Below are positions 2,068-16,095 of a DNA stretch of 37,580 bases, piece after piece. The stretch is taken from positions 1-37,580 of the forward strand of contig SKSS01000101.1 in assembly GCA_007122875.1 (NCBI GenBank). Direction: 5' to 3'. This stretch comes from Salinarchaeum sp. GTDB lineage: Archaea; Halobacteriota; Halobacteria; Halobacteriales; QS-1-68-20. Position numbers and translations under genes: made by a program. The number at the start of each line of letters is the position of its first letter. The first letter of the stretch is position 1. A model generated the notes under the pieces. The model did not search any database and was not told the DNA's origin. It saw nothing but the letters and a program-made list of their open reading frames with translations.

Positions 2068-2577
2068 ATGGCGGGATTTCGAGAGCAAGACCCCGACGGC
2101 TCCCCGAGAGAACCCGACGTGTACCGAAACGCCTGGCAGCACACGCTCGACGACATGGAGGCGATGGCCGACGAACTCGAAGCTGACGGGTGGGAGGTGG
2201 TGACGATTCCCGCCGGAGATACCGCTCCGGAACACCCGGATGTCGGCGATAGCGACCGGTTCGGGCTGGTCCACGTGGTTCCCGGCAACAAGGCGGACGA
2301 CCTCGCCGAGTTGGTCGACGGACGTGAGTTCCCGACATACGATGTCTACCGGGCGACGTTCCAGCGGCGGGTGTTTCTCGTGACCGCGTTGTTCGATGAG
2401 GACGCGAAGTGTGCGATCATGATCGCCGGAACGTACGAGCGCAAGCACGCTCGTCAGTTGATCGAGACCGCACGGGAGGAGGGTGTGATGTACACTCACG
2501 TCCAACGGATCGACAAGACGCCGGTCGCGAGGTTCGAACACACCGACGTAGAGAAGTTCTTCCCGGAAACCGAGTGA
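2068..2577 (+). CDS. Conserved haloarchaeal hypothetical protein (DUF7529-like)
   Basis: Acidic 169-aa ORF with typical codon usage; W..TL.DMEAMA.ELEADGWEV motif; paralogous to 14157..14762. Confidence 0.75.
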   Translation: MAGFREQDPDGSPREPDVYRNAWQHTLDDMEAMADELEADGWEVVTIPAGDTAPEHPDVGDSDRFGLVHVVPGNKADDLAELVDGREFPTYDVYRATFQRRVFLVTALFDEDAKCAIMIAGTYERKHARQLIETAREEGVMYTHVQRIDKTPVARFEHTDVEKFFPETE

Positions 2578-4317: not shown

Positions 4318-5568
4318 TCAAAGCGACCGGACCGTCCGTGCCAGCACGTCCACGCCGATCGGAAGTGAGTCCTCGTCGATGTCGAAGCGTGCGGTGTGGT
4401 GGCCGGCGGGATTGCTCGCGCCGATCCCGACGTACGTGGCCGTTCCGCCATTCTCCTGTACCTCCCGGATCAGATAGGAGGCGTCCTCGCTCGCGCCGAA
4501 GTCCACTCGGCCGACGACTTCGTCGACACCATCGGCTCCGCTCGCGGCATCGACGACCGTCTCCACGAGGTCGTCGTCGGCCTCGAACGTCGTCGTCTTC
4601 CCGTACAGCGAGGTCTCCACGTCGACCTGGTGGGCCGTTGCGGCACCGTCGATGATCGACCGCGCCCGGTCGAGCATGTACTCGTTCAACTCGGCGGTTC
4701 GTCCGCGGACCTCGACGCGCATCGTCGCGCGTTCGGAGATGACGTTCTGGGCGTTCGGCGAGTACACCTCGCCGACGTTGATCCGGGTGACGCCATCGGC
4801 GTGTCGCGGAATCCCGTAGAGGTTCTGGATCGCCGTCGCGGCCGCCTGCAGGGCGTTCCGGCCGGCGTTCGGTTCGCCGCCTGCGTGAGCGGGTTCGCCC
4901 TCGAACGTCACGTCGAGTTTCGCGTTCGCCAGCGGGCGCTCGTAGGAGGCGATCACGGTTCCCGTCTCGCGGCCGAGACCGAGGTGGACCGCGAGCAGGT
5001 GATCGACGTCGGTGAGATGCTCGGTCCGGCTCATCGGGAGACCGCCACGACCGCCCTCCTCGGCCGGCTGGAAGAACAGCTTCAGCGTGCCGTCGAAGCC
5101 GCTCGACTCGTCGAGTTCTCGCGCCAGCCCGAGACCGATCGTCGCGTGGCCGTCGTGGCCGCAGGCGTGCATCTCGCCATCGTGCGTCGAGACGAACCCC
5201 TCGCGAGCGGGGCGGTGGTCGTCGTCGGTCGCCTCCTGGCGTTTCAGCGCGTCGATGTCCACCCGAATCCCGACGGTCGGCCCGGAGCCGTCACCGTACG
5301 TCTTCTCGGCGACGACGCCCGTGATCCCGTCCATCTCCTCGAGGTACTCTTCCGGGGCCCCCTCGTCGCGAGCGCGCTCCTCGGCGGCCGTGAGCGTGTC
5401 GTCGTCGGGTACGCCCAGTCGCTCGCCAGGGGCCACGGCGTCCGAGCCGAGGTGGAGGTCGAAGCCGCGCTCGTCGAGTTCTTCAGCGAGCAGTGCGGTC
5501 GTCCTGAACTCGGTCCAGCCGACCTCCGGGTGAGCGTGGAGGTCGCGTCGAAGCTCCGTGAGATCCAT
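4318..5568 (-). CDS. M20 family amidohydrolase (AbgA/aminobenzoyl-glutamate hydrolase-like)
   Basis: RRDLHAHPEVGWTEFRT, RVDIDAL, MHACGHDGH, FQPAEEG, GASEDA, HHTARFDIDE. Confidence 0.92.
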   Translation of the reverse strand: MDLTELRRDLHAHPEVGWTEFRTTALLAEELDERGFDLHLGSDAVAPGERLGVPDDDTLTAAEERARDEGAPEEYLEEMDGITGVVAEKTYGDGSGPTVGIRVDIDALKRQEATDDDHRPAREGFVSTHDGEMHACGHDGHATIGLGLARELDESSGFDGTLKLFFQPAEEGGRGGLPMSRTEHLTDVDHLLAVHLGLGRETGTVIASYERPLANAKLDVTFEGEPAHAGGEPNAGRNALQAAATAIQNLYGIPRHADGVTRINVGEVYSPNAQNVISERATMRVEVRGRTAELNEYMLDRARSIIDGAATAHQVDVETSLYGKTTTFEADDDLVETVVDAASGADGVDEVVGRVDFGASEDASYLIREVQENGGTATYVGIGASNPAGHHTARFDIDEDSLPIGVDVLARTVRSL

Positions 5569-5758
5569 GTCGGCAGTGCTGACCATGGTGATGAGAGGGC
5601 AACGAACGGAGAAAACGGTGTGGATACCGGCCAGTCGTCGAGTGCTCGTCGCGGGGCGAGTCGTCAGCGTCGCCGGATGGGCATCGGTCGGATCGGTGGC
5701 CTGACTTCGCCCACGACCTCAGCCGTGGGCGGAGCCAGATCGAGCAGTAGCTTACTTC

Positions 5759-5800
5759 AAGGTAACGTTACACTTACCTTCCAGTCAGAGTACACTTATT
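5759..5800 (+). promoter_or_regulatory. Inverted-repeat operator candidate next to a TATA-like box upstream of the lipoprotein/fibre unit
   Basis: AAGGTAA-N8-TTACCTT (5759-5780) overlapping the perfect palindrome GTAACGTTAC (5762-5771); TACACTTA repeated at 5769 and 5791; CTTATT at 5795. Confidence 0.45.
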
Positions 5801-5953
5801 ACCCATCCTTCGCTTGTCAGTTTCGAACCGGGATCGAAGGGATATGTCGCAGAATCCAGAGTATCGGGGCCATCGGTTGAGGAGAAAACCCCGACGATGC
5901 CGACCGACTCGACGCAACTGCTGAAGCGCTGTGGGATCCGGGAGCATGTGAAG

Positions 5954-6220
5954 ATGACAGACAAACAACAACCGACGACGAGGCGACGTGCGTTGGTGGG
6001 GGTCGGTACCCTGTTAGCGACGGTCTCGAACGCTGGCTGTACGGTCACTATCGGCGATCACGAGATAACCGTCTTCGACGGGGAGGGAGGTTCGCCCCGC
6101 GAAGCCGACGGGACGACGCCATCGACGCCGACCTCAGAGGAGACGCCGACGCTCGAACCGACCGAGGAGTACGGAGGCCATGGGTACGGCGAGGATGGCT
6201 ACGGGGGCGTCGACCCGTGA
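5954..6220 (+). CDS. Small Tat lipoprotein with Thr/Pro linker and C-terminal triple YG motif
   Basis: TTRRRALVG twin-arginine, NAGC lipobox (Cys codon 6038), TTPSTPTSEETPT linker, ends EEYGGHGYGEDGYGGVDP. Confidence 0.75.
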   Translation: MTDKQQPTTRRRALVGVGTLLATVSNAGCTVTIGDHEITVFDGEGGSPREADGTTPSTPTSEETPTLEPTEEYGGHGYGEDGYGGVDP

Positions 6221-6239
6221 TGCGACCCAGGAGAACGAC

Positions 6240-7421
6240 ATGACTCGAACACCAAACCACAGATACAACGTACCCGAGGAGGGTGAGCAGAACTGGCACG
6301 TGCCGCTGAACGAGAACTTCGAACGGTACGACGTCGACATCGAAATCCGCGACGAGAGCCACGCGATCGACGAGTACGAACCGAGAGAGGGCGCGAAGTT
6401 TCTGGCGACAGACACCGGCGTCGTCTACATGGGTGATGGAACGGACTGGGAGGAGGCGTTCGATCTCGGGGGGTCCGGCATCCAGAGCGTCGGCAGCGTC
6501 GAACCGGACGACGACGGGAATCTAGCTCTCGTCTCGCCGGACGGGTCACTGAGCATCGCGCCGGACGATACCGAACACGCGATCGAACTCAGCGTCCCCG
6601 CCATCTCCGACCTCGCCGACGCCATTGGGGTTCCCATCGAGCAGCTCAACGGCACGCCGCCCGACGGGGATGGAAATCTGGATCTCGTCTCGCCGGACGA
6701 GTCACTGAGCATCGCATCGAACGAGACCGAAAACATGATCGAACTCAGCAGTCCTGCCATGTTCGATCTTGCCGACGCCGTTGCTGAGACGGTCAGACAG
6801 GTCAACAGCACGCCGCCCGACGGAGCTGGAAATCTGAATCTCGTCTCACCGGACGACTCGCTGAGCATCGCGCCAAACGAGACCGAAAACACGATCGAAC
6901 TCAGCGTGCACAGCCAGACGCAGTTGAATGACGATGGCGACCTCGTCGGCGTACGAAACGTCTTCGCGAACGATGTGTTCGAGAACTCGGACGCCCGTCT
7001 GAAGCAGAACGTTTCGCCGTTTGAAAACGGGCTCGAAACGGTGAATGCGCTCCGTCCGGTCACCTTCGAGTGGGCCGACGACGACGAAGGGAATGATCGC
7101 CAAGTGGGGCTGATCGCCCAGGACGTCGCGGACGTCCTCCCGGAGATCGTTGAACGTCGAAAAGACGACGCAGACGGGGAGGAGGGACACCTCGGGGTCA
7201 ACTACTCGAAGCTGGTTCCGGTGCTTCTCGACGCCGTTCAGCGCCAGCAGGCGGAACTTGCGGACCGGGACGAGCGGATCGACGCCCTTGAAACCGAGCG
7301 TAACCGGAACGCCGACCGGATTGACACCCTCGAAACCCGAAACGAGTCACTGGAAGACCGGCTGGAAACCCTGGAGGCGCGCGTAGGTTCTGCAACGAAC
7401 GGAACTCCATCTGACGACTGA
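6240..7421 (+). CDS. Tail-fibre-like protein with C-terminal peptidase S74 intramolecular chaperone and coiled coil
   Basis: SDARLKQNV...LRPVTFEW...VGLIAQDVADVLPEIV...GVNYSKLVPVLLDAVQ matches the S74 consensus; heptad tail; AGGAG SD at 6229; no signal peptide. Confidence 0.88.
   Translation: MTRTPNHRYNVPEEGEQNWHVPLNENFERYDVDIEIRDESHAIDEYEPREGAKFLATDTGVVYMGDGTDWEEAFDLGGSGIQSVGSVEPDDDGNLALVSPDGSLSIAPDDTEHAIELSVPAISDLADAIGVPIEQLNGTPPDGDGNLDLVSPDESLSIASNETENMIELSSPAMFDLADAVAETVRQVNSTPPDGAGNLNLVSPDDSLSIAPNETENTIELSVHSQTQLNDDGDLVGVRNVFANDVFENSDARLKQNVSPFENGLETVNALRPVTFEWADDDEGNDRQVGLIAQDVADVLPEIVERRKDDADGEEGHLGVNYSKLVPVLLDAVQRQQAELADRDERIDALETERNRNADRIDTLETRNESLEDRLETLEARVGSATNGTPSDD
6480..6908 (+). 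repeat. Intragenic tandem repeat, 156-bp (52-aa) unit, about 2.75 copies
   Basis: CTCGTCTC(G/A)CCGGAC at 6528, 6684 and 6840; GNL.LVSPD.SLSIA...E..IELS three times. Confidence 0.92.
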
Positions 7422-7551
7422 TGTCTCGTCAGTCGACCGTTCCACCACGAGACCATGGGACCCCCTGAACGATACCGTCGACCGGCTGGAAGGTGTGGCG
7501 ATATTGACTGGCTGGACGGTGCGGACGGTTCCGTCTCCGATCGAACCGCGA

Positions 7552-9261
7552 TCAGTCTCGCGTCAATCCGGGGTTCGTGACCGCCCCTTCGGATGCGGAG
7601 TCGAACATCGCGCCGTACTTCGCCAGCACGCCCGCGTCGTACGGTGGCTCGGGCTCATCCCAGGCCTCGCGTCGACGGTCGAGTTCCGCCTCGCTCACGT
7701 TCACGTCGAGCGTTCGATCCGGCACGTCGACCGTGATCGTGTCACCGTCTTCCAACAGCCCGATCGGGCCACCGACGAACGCCTCGGGTGCGACGTGGCC
7801 GATCATCGGGCCGCGGGTTCCACCGGAAAACCGTCCATCCGTGATGAGCGCGACGTCGTCCTCGTGGCCGGCCCCGACGACGGCAGCCGTCACGCCGAGC
7901 ATCTCGCGCATCCCGGGACCGCCACGGGGACCCTCGTTGCGGATGACGATCACGTCACCCGACTCGACGTGCCCCTCCTGGACGTAGGCCATCGCATCCT
8001 CCTCGTTCTCGAAGAGTCGGGCCGGTCCCTCGTGGTGAAACTGATCCCCCCCGGTGGCTTTCAACACGGCCCCGTCCGGCGCGAGGGTTCCCGAGAGGAT
8101 CTTGATCGCGCCCTCCTCCTCCTTCGGGTCGTCGACCGAGTAGAGAAACTCCGCGTCGATCTCGTCGTCGGGCGCGAGTGGGAGCCGTTCGAGTTCCTCG
8201 ACGATCGTCCGCCCAGTGACCGTCATCGCGTCGCCGTGTATCAGATCCGCATCGAGCAGCCGCCGAATCACGACGGGGACGCCACCGAGTTCGTGAAGGT
8301 CGTTCATCACGTGTGAGCCGCCGGGCTGGAGGTCGGCAATCTTGGGCGTCCGCTGTGAGACCGCATCGAAGTCCTCGATGTCGAGGGCGATGCCCGCCTC
8401 GCGGGCCATCGCGAGCAAGTGTAAGACGCCGTTGGTCGAGCCGCCGATCGCCGTCTGGACGGCGATGGCGTTCTCGAACGATTTCCGCGAGAGGATGTCG
8501 GACGGTCGGCGATCCGCCTCGACGCACTCGACGGCGAGTTCGCCGGCCTGCCGGGCGACGGCGTACCGCTCGTGGTGTTCGGCCGGCGCACCGGCGCTTC
8601 CCAGCGGTGCAAGCCCGATCGCCTCGGAGATCGAGGCCATCGTGTTCGCGGTGAACATCCCGCCACACGAACCCGCACCGGGACAGGCCTTCCGTTCGAG
8701 GTCGTCGAGTTCGTCTTCGGACATCTCGCCGGAGGCGACCGCCCCGACGCCCTCGAACACCTGGACGATCGTCACGTCACGGCCGTCGTGCTCGCCGGGC
8801 ATGATCGAACCGCCGTAGAGGAACACGGAGGGGAGATCCGTGCGGATCGCGGCCATCATCATTCCGGGGAGGTTCTTATCACAGCCCGCGACCATTACGA
8901 GCCCGTCGAGACGCTCGCCGAACGCGACGAGTTCGACCGAGTCGGCGATGAGTTCCCTGGAGATGAGCGACGCCTTCATGCCCTCGGTTCCCATCGAGAT
9001 CGCATCGCTGATGGTGATCGTCCCGAACTCGATCGGCATCCCACCGGCCTCGTCGGTCCCCTCGATCGCCGACTCGGCGACATCGTCGAGGTGGACGTTA
9101 CAGGGCGTGATGTCCGCCGCCGGGTTCGGGACGCCGATCATCGGCGAGGCGAAGTCGTCGTCGTCGAAGCCCATCGCCCGGAACATCGAACGATGGGGGG
9201 CTCGTTCGGGACCCTCGGTAACGTCGTTGCTCGGGAGGCTCGGATCCTTCTGGTCGCTCAT
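7552..9261 (-). CDS. ilvD: Dihydroxy-acid dehydratase
   Basis: [66 protein letters not shown]; start at MSDQKD. Confidence 0.97.
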
Positions 9262-9391
9262 AACCCGAGGATGGCACCCGACTGGCTTAAGCCCGGCTAC
9301 CGGACAGCCCCCTCCGTCGAACCCGACGTGGGACGCCGCCACGATCTCCGCCGTCGAAACCCCCTTGTCGGGCCCCCCCAAACCCGGATTC

Positions 9392-10372
9392 ATGTCCGCA
9401 CGGGTCGTCGCCCCGGCTCGCCTCCACTTCGGCTTCGTCAACCTTTCACCGGCCCGCGAGCGGCTCTACGGCGCTCTCGGGGTTTCCCTCGACGGGTTTC
9501 GAACGAGCGTCGAGGCCACCCCGGCCGATCGGGTCGAGTGTTCCGATCCCGAAGCGCGTCGATACGCCGAGCGCGCCGTCAGCCATCTCAAGGTCCCCGG
9601 GGCGACCGTCCGGGTCGAGAACTCCCCTCCCCGGCACGTCGGTCTCGGGAGCGGCACACAGCTTGCGCTCGCCACGCTCGTCGCCGTCGGAGCGGCCTAC
9701 GGCGAACGGCCTGCGGCCCGCAGACTCGCCCCCAACCTCGGACGAGGGGGTCGAAGCGGCGTTGGCGTCGCCGCCTTCGAGGGCGGCGGATTCGTCCTCG
9801 ACGCCGGCCACCCGACGGGACGGTTCACCGCGGAGCCACCCGCTCGCGGCGAGTGGACCGTCCCCCCGATCGTTTCACGCCACGAGATACCCGACGACTG
9901 GCGGTTCGTCCTCGCGCTTCCGGACGCCGATCCCGGCCGGAGCGGCGCGGACGAGGACGACGCCATGCGCCGAACGGTGGAGGACGCCGACCCAGCCGTC
10001 GCCGACGAGATCGCCCGAACCGTCGTCCATCGCGTGCTTCCGGCGGTCGCCGAAGGGGACGCGAGGGCGTTCGGAGCGGCCGTCTCCGAGATCGGCCGGT
10101 TGAACGGGGCCTGGTACGCCGACGCGCAGGGTGGGATCTACCGGCCGCCGGTCGGAACGATCGTCGAGGCACTCGCCGACGATCCGGCGGTCGACGGGGC
10201 CGGGCAGTCCTCGTGGGGGCCGGCGACCTACGCGATCACGACGGCGGACCGGGCGGAGCGCGCGCTGGACGCGGCTCGTCGAGCGCTCGACAAAGCGGGG
10301 GTCGATGGCCGGGTCGAGGCGGTAGCGGGGTGTAACGAGGGGGCACAAGTGGAACGCAAACATGGCGCGTGA
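9392..10372 (+). CDS. Beta-ribofuranosylaminobenzene 5'-phosphate synthase family (GHMP fold)
   Basis: [47 protein letters not shown]. Confidence 0.9.
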
Positions 10373-13347: not shown

Positions 13348-14160
13348 ATGACCGACGAGCCGGGCGATCCAGCCGAGTCAGCCGACCCGGACCCGAGACG
13401 ACGTGTCGCCTCCCGGACGGACGATGAGTACGACGATACCGACGAATCCGGTTTCGATACGTCCGGCCGCAGCGACGACGGAGATACCGAATCCGGAAAC
13501 AGTAACACGGAACTCGAAGATGCCGACACGGAACCCGGAGACACTGACACGGGATCCGAAGAGCGTGATGCGGAACCTGAAAACGGCGAGACGAAACCCG
13601 ACGGCGCCGACGAGCGGGACGTACCCGAGGACGTGCAAACGTACGAGCGGTTCACGAAGGTCGACGGCGCGGAGTACGAGCGCGTCAACGAGTTCCTCCG
13701 CAACCGGACGCACATCACGGCCCGCGAGTGGGCCATCGCACGGCTCTGCTCGGATTTCCGCACGGAGACGGGCGTCGAGATGACCAAAATCGGCGAGAAC
13801 CTCCCGGAACTCGTCCCGTTCATGACCGACACGTACACCCCGCAGGCGGTCAATCAGGCGCGGGCCTCGTTCGAGGAGAAGATTCGGATGGCGGGTGCGA
13901 CGTTCCTCTACGGCGCGATGTGTGATTTCTTCACGGCCGAGGAACTCGACGACGTGATGTACGAGGCGACCGAGGTCGCGAAGTTCCTCCTCGAAGTCGA
14001 GGGCGTCGAACTCTCCGTCGAGGAGGAACTGGAGGCCGAAGAGCGCATCTCGACGGTGATGCGTGAGGTTCGGGAGGCGAGCCAGCAACTCCGAACCGCC
14101 GAGGAACTCGAACTCGACGGCTCCTGTCCGCACTGCGGGGAGGAACTCACGGACGACTAA
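13348..14160 (+). CDS. Conserved haloarchaeal protein (DUF5806-like) with acidic N-terminal tail and C-terminal CPxCG
   Basis: RVNEFLRNRTHITAREWAIARLC.DFRTETGVEMTKIGENLP core; CPHCG at C-terminus. Confidence 0.8.
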   Translation: MTDEPGDPAESADPDPRRRVASRTDDEYDDTDESGFDTSGRSDDGDTESGNSNTELEDADTEPGDTDTGSEERDAEPENGETKPDGADERDVPEDVQTYERFTKVDGAEYERVNEFLRNRTHITAREWAIARLCSDFRTETGVEMTKIGENLPELVPFMTDTYTPQAVNQARASFEEKIRMAGATFLYGAMCDFFTAEELDDVMYEATEVAKFLLEVEGVELSVEEELEAEERISTVMREVREASQQLRTAEELELDGSCPHCGEELTDD

Positions 14161-14762
14161 CGGGAGTCCGACCGATCGTCGTCCGACGTGTCCGGGTCGG
14201 CGTCATCGGACTCGGTTCGTTCGTCGTTCCTCGCCCGCCACCGTCGGCGCGCTTCGAGACCGCGTCGTCGTCGATCCGCCGCCGGATCTGCCTCAGGGTT
14301 GTGTCGATTGAGTGGTAAGAACGGCTCGGCGTTGTCGTGGACGAACGTCACCCGGTCGTCTCCCGACAGCGGGCGGATGTGCGTCCGCATCACGCCCTCC
14401 TGGCGGGCCCGGCGGAACATCGGCCGATCCCCGATCCACCGGTAGTACGCCGGGACGATCACGGCGACCTCCTCGTCGGGGTTCTCGATTGCGGTGACGT
14501 AGTAGATGATGGCGTCATCTCTCGCTTTGAACACCTGAAAGCGGTCGAAGTCGGCCGCGTCCGTGACGACCTCCTCGACGGCCGCGTACTCCTCACCGGG
14601 AACGACGACGGTCACCCCGAACTGGTCGTCGGTCCGCGCGGTCACGTCACCGGGGGTGACCGTCACGACCTCCCACCCCTCCGCGTCGTACTCCGTGGCG
14701 GTCGCCTCCGCGTCCTCGATCACGTCGCTCCACACGTCGCCGGGGGGGCTGTGAGCGTCCAT
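14157..14762 (-). CDS. Conserved haloarchaeal hypothetical protein (DUF7529-like), paralog of 2068..2577
   Basis: W..VIEDAEATA.EYDAEGWEVV.V.PGD...AR.EGVM.TH aligns by eye with the 2068 ORF. Confidence 0.75.
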   Translation of the reverse strand: MDAHSPPGDVWSDVIEDAEATATEYDAEGWEVVTVTPGDVTARTDDQFGVTVVVPGEEYAAVEEVVTDAADFDRFQVFKARDDAIIYYVTAIENPDEEVAVIVPAYYRWIGDRPMFRRARQEGVMRTHIRPLSGDDRVTFVHDNAEPFLPLNRHNPEADPAADRRRRGLEARRRWRARNDERTESDDADPDTSDDDRSDSR

Positions 14763-14799
14763 GTGTCGATGAGGGTGGGGACCGTCGAAAAGGGTTGTC

Positions 14800-16095
14800 T
14801 TACCCGCGAACGTTCCGCCCGACCGCCTCGCCGAACCGCTCCTCGCCGTCACGGTCGTCGTAGACGATCCGCCCTCGAACGACCGTGAGTTCCGGGAAGA
14901 CGCCCGTCATCCCCTCGTAGGGCGTCCACCCGCACTTCGAGTGGAGATCCGATCCGCGAATCTCGCGGACGTTCTCCGGATCGACCAGCACGAAGTCGGC
15001 GTCCATTCCCGCTTCGATCCGCCCCTTGGTCGGGAGGTCGAACACGTCCGCCGGGTTCGTGGCCGTCAGATCACGGACCCGCTCCCAGGTCAGCCGGCCG
15101 TCACGGACCGCGGCGAGCAGCAGGGGGAGGGTCGTCTCCACGCCCGGAACGCCGCTCGGGGCCGCCGCGACCGCGGCCTCCTTCTCCGCTGTGAGGTGCG
15201 GAGCGTGATCGGAGGCGACGATGTCGACGGTGCCGTCTGCGACCCGCTCGAAGACGCCCTCGCGGCGCGCCTCACTTCGAAGTGGCGGGTTCATCTGGCC
15301 GAACGTCCCGAGGTCGTTGAGGTCGTCGCGAGAGAGAAATAGGTGGTGGGGACAGACCTCGCAGGTCGCGCCGTGCTCGACGGCCGCGTCGATCGCCTCC
15401 GGGGACGTGGTGTGAGCGACGTGCAGATCCGCACCCGCCTCCGTCGCGCGCTCGCAGGCGAGATCGATCGCGTCGACTTCCGCGCGGGCGGGTCGGTAGG
15501 CGCTCCAGGCGTCCGCGTCGGCATCCCGGCCGGTCCCGCTGCCGGCCGTTTCGAGGGCCGACTCGTCGAACAGCGCGTCGTCCTCGGCGTGGACGGTGAG
15601 GGTGAGATCCGCCTCTGCGGCCCGTTCGGCGGCGACGGAGAAGAGATCGGCGTCGATGCCCATCCCGCCGGTCGAATCCGCGAGGAACACCTCGCCGAGG
15701 GCGAACAGCGGGCGCGAGAGGAGGGTGTCGGGATCCCAGTCGGGAATCACGCCGCCGGAGATACCGTAGTCGACGAGCGACTCCTCGGCGACAGCGTCTT
15801 TCGCGTCGTAGCCCGCCCCGTCGATCGTGGGCGGATCGGTGTTGGGTTGGTCGACGATCGTGGTCACGCCGCCGGCCGCGGCCGAACGGCTGGCCGTCCC
15901 CCACGTCTCCTTGTGTGTGAACCCCGGCTCCCGGACGTGGACGTGCGCGTCGATCACCCCGGGAAGGAGGCGCTTTCCGGTCGCGTCGACGATTTCCTCC
16001 CCCGAGAGATTCTCTCCGACGGCCGCGATCCGGCCGTCCTCAACCGCCACGTCCCGGATCCGGCCACCCGCGAGGGTCGCGTTCCGAACGAGCAT
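14800..16095 (-). CDS. pyrC: Dihydroorotase
   Basis: LLPGVIDAHVHVREPG, AAAGGVTT..DQPNT, VHAED, CEVCPHHL, MNPPLR, ASDHAPH, HSKCGWTPY. Confidence 0.93.
   Translation of the reverse strand: MLVRNATLAGGRIRDVAVEDGRIAAVGENLSGEEIVDATGKRLLPGVIDAHVHVREPGFTHKETWGTASRSAAAGGVTTIVDQPNTDPPTIDGAGYDAKDAVAEESLVDYGISGGVIPDWDPDTLLSRPLFALGEVFLADSTGGMGIDADLFSVAAERAAEADLTLTVHAEDDALFDESALETAGSGTGRDADADAWSAYRPARAEVDAIDLACERATEAGADLHVAHTTSPEAIDAAVEHGATCEVCPHHLFLSRDDLNDLGTFGQMNPPLRSEARREGVFERVADGTVDIVASDHAPHLTAEKEAAVAAAPSGVPGVETTLPLLLAAVRDGRLTWERVRDLTATNPADVFDLPTKGRIEAGMDADFVLVDPENVREIRGSDLHSKCGWTPYEGMTGVFPELTVVRGRIVYDDRDGEERFGEAVGRNVRG

Follow-up and report, generated by a model that had tools for sequence, protein, structure and literature searches.

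The window analysed here is a whole 37.6 kb stretch of high-G+C haloarchaeal DNA (Salinarchaeum sp., contig SKSS01000101.1, positions 1 to 37,580), taken from a 1.9 Mb assembly in 125 contigs that is 60% complete. We focus on two adjacent genes, Gene 1 and Gene 2. Gene 1 encodes a small lipoprotein-like protein with a signal for twin-arginine translocation (Tat) and a C-terminal tail of three Tyr-Gly (YG) units. Gene 2 encodes a fibre-like protein, the N-terminal module of which (N-module) begins with a short motif that we call the head. Our reading, to which we give a probability of about 60%, is that the two genes form one unit: a phage baseplate-fibre joint taken over by the cell, docking a signal-less trimeric cargo onto Tat lipoproteins. 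The computational evidence consists of the anatomy of the two proteins, the genomic coupling of head and tail, their predicted contact, and a link to viral baseplates.

Anatomy of the two proteins

A first-pass annotation, made by a model from the sequence alone, had described both genes, the 19-nucleotide (nt) gap, the flanking genes, the S74 domain and the repeats. Every one of these elements was confirmed by the open reading frames (ORFs), Pfam and tandem-repeat analysis, see Table 1.

Table 1. Positions of the features of Gene 1 and Gene 2 and of the genes beside them.
Feature	Positions	Strand	Basis or remark
Gene 1	5954-6220	+	88 aa, translated ORF
Twin-arginine signal (R10-R11-R12; n-region TTRRR), hydrophobic stretch and NAGC, to Cys29	5954-6040	+	read from sequence
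Acidic Thr/Pro-rich linker, residues 44-70	6083-6163	+	translation
Putative docking tail EEYGGHGYGEDGYGGVDP, residues 71-88	6164-6217	+	three aromatic-Gly units, 5 residues apart
Spacer between Gene 1 and Gene 2	6221-6239		19 nt; reading frames differ
Gene 2	6240-7421	+	393 aa, translated ORF, tail-fibre-like
N-module, residues 1-76	6240-6467	+	putative docking head at about 5-30 (YNVPxxGxxNWHVPLNENF), then small beta unit at about 34-75
Predicted contact loop, residues 12-21 (PEEGEQNWHV)	6273-6302	+	interface in all three modelled copies
Shaft, 2.5 tandem repeats of 52 aa	6519-6907	+	Tandem Repeats Finder: period 156 nt, 83% matches
Peptidase_S74 (PF13884), residues 250-304	6987-7151	+	E 9.2e-18, 64.7 bits vs cut-off 22
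C-terminal long helix/coiled coil, residues 322-386	7203-7397	+	weak coiled-coil family matches, e.g. DUF7310
M20 peptidase/amidohydrolase	4321-5586	-	flanks the pair
ilvD	7555-9393	-	flanks the pair

The Gene 1 protein begins MTDKQQPTTRRRALVGVGTLLATVSNAGC, continues into a stretch rich in Thr and Pro, and ends in the tail EEYGGHGYGEDGYGGVDP, with the triple-YG core YGGHGYGEDGYGG. By sequence reading, its twin-arginine region, TTRRRALVGVGTLLATV, contains both the motif and the hydrophobic region. A short segment separates the Cys of the lipobox-like sequence from the acidic linker. No Pfam family matched Gene 1 at E<=1, and tblastn with Gene 1 gave no match among phage records.

The Gene 2 protein begins MTRTPNHRYNVPEEGEQNWHVPLNENF and has no signal peptide. 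Its shaft contains three GNLxLVSPDxSLSI units spaced 52 aa apart. The Peptidase_S74 domain was also found in a profile scan of the genome (68.6 bits, 6987-7151). In tail fibres and tailspikes, S74 domains of the endosialidase type act as C-terminal intramolecular chaperones; cleavage takes place at a Ser nucleophile, which a Lys follows five residues on. In Gene 2 the domain opens with Ser250 and Lys255 (NS250DARLK255), and among 14 aligned fibres S250 is invariant and K255 at least 90% conserved. The C-terminal coiled coil is probably shed along with the S74 domain. Tail-fibre families of PHROG match only the C-terminal part of Gene 2, with profile matches that begin at residues 180-249. An AlphaFold2 (AF2) model of the full-length protein, built from a 14-row alignment, has a mean pLDDT of 49.4 and is unusable apart from the C-terminal helix (block means 87-93 at residues 341-380, 63-65 on either side).

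A single fused gene was considered and rejected: the two reading frames differ, and in 35 out of 35 pairs the partner protein ends in a stop codon.

Head and tail are coupled in Halobacteria genomes

In a set of 401 Halobacteria genomes the N-module is found in 91, at 137 places in 41 of 91 genera, with 1-5 copies per genome; it is also present on 20 haloarchaeal megaplasmids. We searched the tail in the same genomes as the DNA pattern [YF]G-x3-YG-x3-YGG and obtained 93 matches in 71 genomes, compared with about 34 (our own count) for a reversed control pattern. The first-pass annotation had paired tail and fibre, and this pairing recurs: 44 of the 93 matches precede an N-module by 6-59 nt in the same orientation, in 16 genera and 6 families, with 20 of them from one genus. 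By an estimate from the search space, rather than a computed value, chance would produce far less than one such same-strand adjacency. The pairing of head and tail is not chance. The other matches are found within 50 kb on the same contig (28), in genomes with a module elsewhere (9), or in module-free genomes (12). Seen from the head, the strict pattern lies directly upstream of 44 of the 137 module places and of 44 of the 108 strong ones. In the 1.9-Mb assembly itself, the triple-YG regular expression matches Gene 1 alone and the head expression Gene 2 alone, among 12,999 six-frame ORFs of at least 50 aa. All nine LNRNF heads (9/9) are paired with FGE.GYG tails, a co-variation that we do not count as evidence because these sequences are close kin.

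The pairs are not confined to proviruses. The pair studied here lies between housekeeping genes, and N-module genes on Haloarcula and Halorussus plasmids sit in clusters of glycosyltransferase, sulfatase and flippase genes; a YG-tailed partner adjoins the N-module gene on plasmid pHH400, and none was found on the Halorussus plasmid. In one genus (g12; L007, L022, L030, L031 and others) a second head gene of about 430-445 aa is located in convergent orientation about 2.4 kb away, beside a glycosyltransferase, and therefore one YG-tailed carbohydrate-binding module (CBM) protein may serve two cargoes.

Predicted contact between head and tail

To model the complex we combined three copies of A1, the profile alignment of 51 N-modules, with one copy of A2, the alignment of 34 partner tails, and used ipSAE as score. 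The combination of three N-modules and one tail reached 0.64, whereas the three controls (unrelated partners, and the tail against an unrelated protein) lay between 0.00 and 0.02, the best of them at 0.02. The contacts agree between runs by at least 94%, and the pLDDT of the partner is at least 58. In the modelled interface, tail residues 71-75, 77-80 and 82-88 contact residues 12-21 of each head copy, and Y78 and Y83 of the tail touch the W19/P12/G15 loops of different copies, with invariant residues on both sides. Each YG unit is thereby predicted to sit on residues 12-21 of one protomer; one unit per protomer is what the first-pass annotation had proposed. No solved chain related by sequence was found, and recall of a known complex is therefore unlikely. 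The complex model favours head-tail binding without demonstrating it.

The modelled contact could be an artefact if the two genes are mere operon neighbours, encoding independent surface or secreted proteins, with the YG tail acting as a low-complexity spacer or as a cross-linking or wall-binding segment. Tails rich in Tyr and Gly are indeed of low complexity, a fold predictor can set a peptide onto a symmetric oligomer, and 49 of the 93 YG matches are not beside a head. Still, we regard this explanation as quite unlikely, given the scores of the control folds and the invariance of the contacting residues on both sides. Moreover, the head motif follows a YG-tailed Tat lipoprotein even where it is C-terminal in a different protein (L074, see below), and both motifs adjoin in viral tail modules.

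Head and YG motifs in viral contigs

A relative of the head is encoded at 13 IMG/VR loci, and one of them, L059, has the full module. At the other 12 the match is confined to the first 23-43 residues of the query, and in 10 of these 12 the motif PxxGxxxWxxPLNxN[FW] is N-terminal on tail-type proteins. The G+C content across these loci is 0.28-0.67. The uncultivated viral genome (UViG) L059 is a 52.6-kb contig with acidic proteins, in which the gene of a 383-aa module-headed protein is immediately preceded by a baseplate J-like one (phrog_6, E 6e-42). In this viral contig at least, the N-module is a fibre attachment head; the first-pass annotation had suggested a resemblance to such heads. Two genes later, the contig encodes a protein of 190 aa that opens with the YG repeat MSHVGYGRGGYGSGTYGDGGY and has a match in phrog_1160, a baseplate family (E 3.4e-6). 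At L063 the YG motif is in a phrog_1160 protein (E 1.2e-20), whose gene stops 31 nt short of the head-motif gene. A triple-YG ORF is present in 7 of the 13 viral loci, compared with a background of one ORF per 1.9 Mb in the genome studied here. The YG motifs lie in phrog_1160 proteins at 2 of the 13 loci; the YG proteins of the remaining viral loci are without annotation.

Another of the seven triple-YG loci, L071, is a predicted provirus in IMG/VR (40.7 kb). There a 143-aa protein (5562-5993) has a Tat-like signal followed directly by FGYGEGAYGEAGYGG; it overlaps the start of a 601-aa head-bearing protein (5986-7791), and two further ORFs with YG motifs lie upstream.

The N-module family and its cargoes

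The A1 alignment has 15 invariant columns, P12, G15 and W19 among them. A search with A1 among 1.84 billion proteins returned 949 representative proteins at E<=1e-3, 627 of them at E<=1e-10, and in 147 of the 150 representatives listed the module starts at or before residue 9. The head motif is found in the first 60 residues of 59 out of 117 Gene 2 homologues, and in many of these the likeness to Gene 2 ends after some 70 residues (45-76% identity), with C-termini that differ widely. The N-module forms a separate family, not covered by Pfam, in which a conserved adaptor at the N-terminus is followed by variable distal parts. The pair, which had appeared in the first-pass annotation as an orphan oddity, instead belongs to a modular family of considerable size that our searches did not find described, with numerous anchors and cargoes.

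The C-termini of 34 scanned relatives contain an S74 domain (4), a PL14 polysaccharide lyase (5), a sub-threshold Mtd_N match only (2) or no family (23). The last group includes proteins of about 440 aa and tiny ones of 100-190 aa, and head-only proteins of 63-98 aa exist as well. Mtd_N (PF18454) did not match Gene 2 at E<=1, and 4 of the 34 relatives reached 19.9-22.0 bits, below the cut-off of 26.3; the fold of the N-module is only weakly similar to Mtd (E 1.0 and Z 2.9). Among the weak rows of the fold searches, phage fibre and spike N-termini are frequent; we treat these as leads only. A sequence search of the PDB with A1 gave only a chance match (E 1.3). For residues 1-80 the nearest clusters in the ESM Atlas are viral (0.91-0.92); the named leads T4_gp9_10_N (0.88), PTL_trimer (0.87) and Mtd_N (0.86) are all below a trustworthy level.

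A few relatives depart from the usual arrangement. At L074:3022-4146(+) and L075:3340-4680(-) the head motif (YNTPxxGTVDWHxPLNENF) is C-terminal in unrelated proteins of 374 and 446 aa; these heads comprise 30 residues, and a short coiled coil follows in place of the beta unit. The L074 gene comes directly after a YG-tailed Tat lipoprotein (2179-2982). P0191 (257 aa) has a middle domain of the partner type that runs, without an intervening YG tail, straight into a head module at residue 138; this protein may be a fusion or a mis-called ORF. At L006 (Natronosalvus amylolyticus plasmid NZ_CP101160.1, 7544-9219), and also at L014 and L016, a set of three genes encodes a Phage_T4_gp19 tube-like protein (PF06841, E 6e-29), a 283-aa fibre of head plus S74, and a 124-aa hypothetical protein. 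This set is wedged between two giant PQQ beta-propeller proteins, and no YG partner is adjacent. The gene upstream of the PL14 lyase at L017 ends in a degenerate ...SGEYGYSSLSA. Any partner of the PL14 head proteins would act in trans.

Partner proteins across Halobacteria

We compared 27 complete, non-identical partners, with signals scored by a regular expression (RR plus hydrophobic region). All 27 have the RR and the hydrophobic region, and 25 out of 27 have a lipobox Cys, in the form xAGC and mostly as LAGC, TAGC or VAGC. An extra xGYGG motif, located 30-47 residues past the RR and shortly after the lipobox Cys, is present in 26 out of 27 (for example L013:1721-2833(-)); only Gene 1 is without it. 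In each of the 34 aligned partners a linker rich in Thr, Pro and Glu, with acidic residues, precedes the tail, and the residues G, Y, G, Y, G are invariant.

The middle domains of 25 scanned partners are one or two LamG domains (10), CBM6/35 (3), PPC (3) or sub-threshold matches only (1), and eight partners, like Gene 1, have none. Gene 1 is the minimal anchor protein of the family, i.e. the smallest, because the middle domain is what differs among the partners and Gene 1 belongs to those without one. In some Tat proteins the YG motif stands directly behind the signal peptide.

The partner on pHH400 (Haloarcula hispanica, L007, NC_015944.1, locus 5679-7994) is a CBM protein, HAH_RS18945, that is annotated without a signal. 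The open frame upstream of it contains DRRTCMKLAGVAAASLAGC...FGYGG, i.e. a twin-arginine signal, a lipobox and the GYGG motif, and the RefSeq start of HAH_RS18945 looks to be placed too far downstream. The second gene of this pair is HAH_RS18950.

Genomic surroundings of the pair

The genes that flank the pair are housekeeping genes (Table 1). Among 32 ORFs of the window, the Pfam scan found 0 viral families, in agreement with the first-pass annotation, which had seen no integrase, capsid or other tail gene nearby, and no tRNA was found within the window. The G+C content is 0.61-0.62 across 5501-7500, compared with 0.65-0.69 alongside. These data bear on whether the pair is a functionless remnant of a decaying provirus tail module. 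We hold this to be highly improbable: both genes have intact frames, the 37.6 kb contain no further viral genes, the anchor is a Tat lipoprotein of cellular type, S250 and K255 are conserved, and the architecture has been kept in 16 genera with varied cellular domains. The viral type of the fibre and the lower G+C of the cassette are what a remnant would account for.

An antiviral function is another explanation, which we judge very unlikely. The exported YG tail would mimic the baseplate docking site and capture head-bearing fibres of incoming haloviruses, or the pair would display a decoy or receptor-masking fibre, hindering virion assembly or adsorption. PADLOC matched no defence family here, the cell encodes its own matched cargo directly beside the anchor, and many cassettes lie in polysaccharide gene clusters and carry lectin domains. 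On the other side, the joint is of viral type, its patchy distribution (41/91 genera) and low local G+C are as in accessory genes, and the predicted provirus L071 carries a YG protein with a Tat-like signal beside a head protein.

A search of NCBIfam found nothing relevant. A scan for bacterial-type promoters and terminators gave nothing useful; archaeal promoters lie outside its coverage. The metatranscriptome contigs of the same sample cover only the flanking genes, and no RNA dataset is listed as containing the stretch; it is present in two DNA runs of one study, one of which is possibly its source. The window also contains two DUF7529 paralogues, at 2068-2577 (+) and 14157-14852 (-), with E 1e-63 and 1e-39.

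A proposed mechanism of export and display

In the mechanism that we propose, the product of Gene 2 would be a trimeric fibre with a docking head of about 30 residues, a small trimerising unit, a shaft of 52-aa repeats and an S74 chaperone, which would fold the trimer and then probably cut itself off before Ser250. The product of Gene 1 would be a Tat lipoprotein made of signal, lipid-anchor Cys, flexible linker and three-YG tail. Each YG unit would insert into the P12-V21 loop, around W19, of one protomer, and one tail would tie up one trimer since each unit occupies one protomer. We infer cytoplasmic assembly of the complex from the translational closeness of the genes and from the way Tat works, which carries proteins across once they have been translated and folded. 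It would then cross the membrane on the twin-arginine signal of the lipoprotein, i.e. by hitchhiking, and end lipid-tethered on the cell surface. Candidate roles there are adhesion, glycan binding and virus interference. Wherever computation could test it, the interpretation given in the first-pass annotation is supported.

A second S74 locus of the same genome bears on export (L002, G000:C99:41748-44915, with ORFs at 588-1034, 1042-1860 and 1936-2712). It encodes a tail tube protein like T4 gp19, a likeness drawn from a near-identical neighbour in L014 that matches PF06841, and then two S74 proteins that lack a head module and bear a twin-arginine signal or lipobox themselves. One of these two S74 proteins and the cargo part of the head-bearing protein P0020 are 50% identical over 157 aa (E 5e-44), so the same cargo subfamily occurs either behind a Tat signal or behind a head. 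Judging from these sequences, head plus anchor may stand in for a signal, and the cargo would work outside the cell.

It is also conceivable that the proteins dock as modelled and that no Tat hitchhiking takes place: the fibre would leave by lysis, in vesicles or by another route, or stay inside, and would meet the YG tail outside or on neighbouring cells. Co-export is backed solely by one protein having a signal and the other having none, a trimer of 393-aa chains plus anchor is a large cargo for Tat, and many head proteins have no adjacent partner. Against this stand the tight operon, with intergenic gaps of -10 to +42 nt in 35 pairs and several start/stop overlaps, which favours assembly at the site of synthesis, and the Tat signal that the same cargo class bears itself elsewhere in the genome. 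Moreover, Tat exports already folded proteins, and most secreted proteins of haloarchaea take this route (PMC13673990). On balance we consider docking without hitchhiking unlikely.

Several results weigh against the joint as we read it. About one third of the 93 triple-YG matches may be chance, 49 of them are not adjacent to an N-module, and the coupling counts overstate the number of independent events because related genomes are not independent. The strict YG pattern is lacking directly upstream of 93 of all 137 module places and of 64 of the 108 strong ones; in the 30 best loci a YG-rich tail lies upstream of 15 of 32 module places. None of the PL14-lyase head proteins has an adjacent YG partner (0/5; L015, L017, L020, L026, L034). 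The calibration of the complex score, in which 58 of 80 solved complexes and 2 of 110 mismatched pairs reach the 0.64 mark, holds only roughly here because our own alignments and the three copies differ from the calibration of the tool. The AF2 model of the head alone has a moderate pLDDT of 73.8, and searches with it by Foldseek and VIA-align found nothing significant (best: HylP1 fibre 2c3f, E 0.09, and ORF18 of Geobacillus virus E2, Z 3.5). The viral link rests on 13 IMG/VR loci, one of them with the full module, because tblastn with the N-module matched 0 of 50,697 phage records. Finally, the lipobox motif quoted in PMC12462473 is [L/V/I][A/S/T/V/I][G/A/S]C, with L/V/I at position -3; the N-A-G-C29 of Gene 1 fits at positions -2, -1 and +1 and has N at -3.

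Since relatives carry other cargoes and lectin-type anchors, the joint would be a general display device. In its broadest form, which we put forward tentatively and at somewhat less than even odds, this is a portable docking code. A triple-YG peptide would plug into a trimeric PxxGxxxWxxPLNxNF head, and Tat lipoproteins and lectin scaffolds would carry signal-less cargo through the Tat pore for display. Fibres and domains of about 440 aa would be among the cargo; PL14 lyases are headed too, with no adjacent partner found. If true, this would amount to a large family of non-redox Tat hitchhikers, cellulosome-like display in archaea, and a two-piece tag for exporting folded proteins.

If the model of the pair itself holds, a peptide-level rule, three YG units for three protomers, would attach a homotrimeric fibre to a single chain, and the same rule may explain fibre attachment in many uncharacterised viruses. 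A viral structural joint would have been reused by cells without the rest of the tail, and the pairs would be candidate non-redox Tat hitchhikers in organisms that secrete mostly through Tat. Hundreds of haloarchaeal surface proteins now called hypothetical would gain an explanation, because neither the head (949 representatives) nor the tail has a Pfam family. The 18-residue tail and the head of about 30-76 residues are possible surface-display tools for halophiles. Our literature searches, with subscription journals and supplements outside their coverage, found no account of the pair, of a triple-YG code or of a PxxGxxxWxxPLNxNF head.

Comparison with known systems

With S74 tail fibres and tailspikes Gene 2 shares PF13884 above cut-off, Ser250 and Lys255 at the start of the domain, and a repeat shaft ahead of it. 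Unlike them, it is a cellular gene with no virus or tail cluster around it, and its partner is a lipoprotein.

Rodrigue et al., in 1999, reportedly described Tat hitchhiker complexes, in which a signal-less subunit leaves the cytoplasm in complex with a partner that has a twin-arginine signal; HybOC and DmsAB are examples. Here too one partner has the RR signal and the other has none, with adjacent genes and a predicted binding. However, the known cases are cofactor-bearing redox enzymes with large interfaces, whereas here an 18-residue peptide would sit in a trimer and the cargo would be interchangeable.

In function the pair would resemble the cohesins and dockerins of cellulosomes, a portable docking pair that attaches carbohydrate-active or carbohydrate-binding modules to anchored scaffolds. 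The likeness extends to the domains involved: the partners carry LamG, CBM6/35 and PPC, and the cargoes include S74 fibres and PL14 lyases, the latter with an adjacent partner in none of five cases. Cohesin and dockerin pair domain to domain, while the pairing here would be peptide to trimer and of viral origin, and no cohesin or dockerin Pfam family matched either protein at E<=1.

The Tat-fimbriae (tafi) of Haloarcula hispanica are likewise a haloarchaeal surface structure with Tat-dependent subunits, one of them with LamG (PMC11821415). However, each tafi subunit has its own RR signal, assembly is by donor-strand exchange, the genes are HAH_0237-0243, and no YG tail or head module appears. 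We considered tafi as the same system and rejected it, since genes and assembly mode, as given there, are different.

A close architectural parallel is in phage P2, where the trimeric fibre gpH is reported to be gripped at its N-terminal adaptor by the wedge protein gpI, through the flexible C-terminus of the latter (10.64898/2026.09.14.750843). In both cases the one-to-three symmetry problem is solved alike: a flexible peptide of a second protein grips a homotrimeric fibre at its N-terminal adaptor; for the haloarchaeal pair this holding is as predicted by our model. In P2 the peptide belongs to a baseplate protein, whereas here a cellular Tat lipoprotein or lectin protein bears it and a tail is absent; the two are likened by architecture, not by sequence. 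By this analogy, the haloarchaeal pair may be read as a joint of the P2 kind in which the peptide has moved onto a cellular exported protein.

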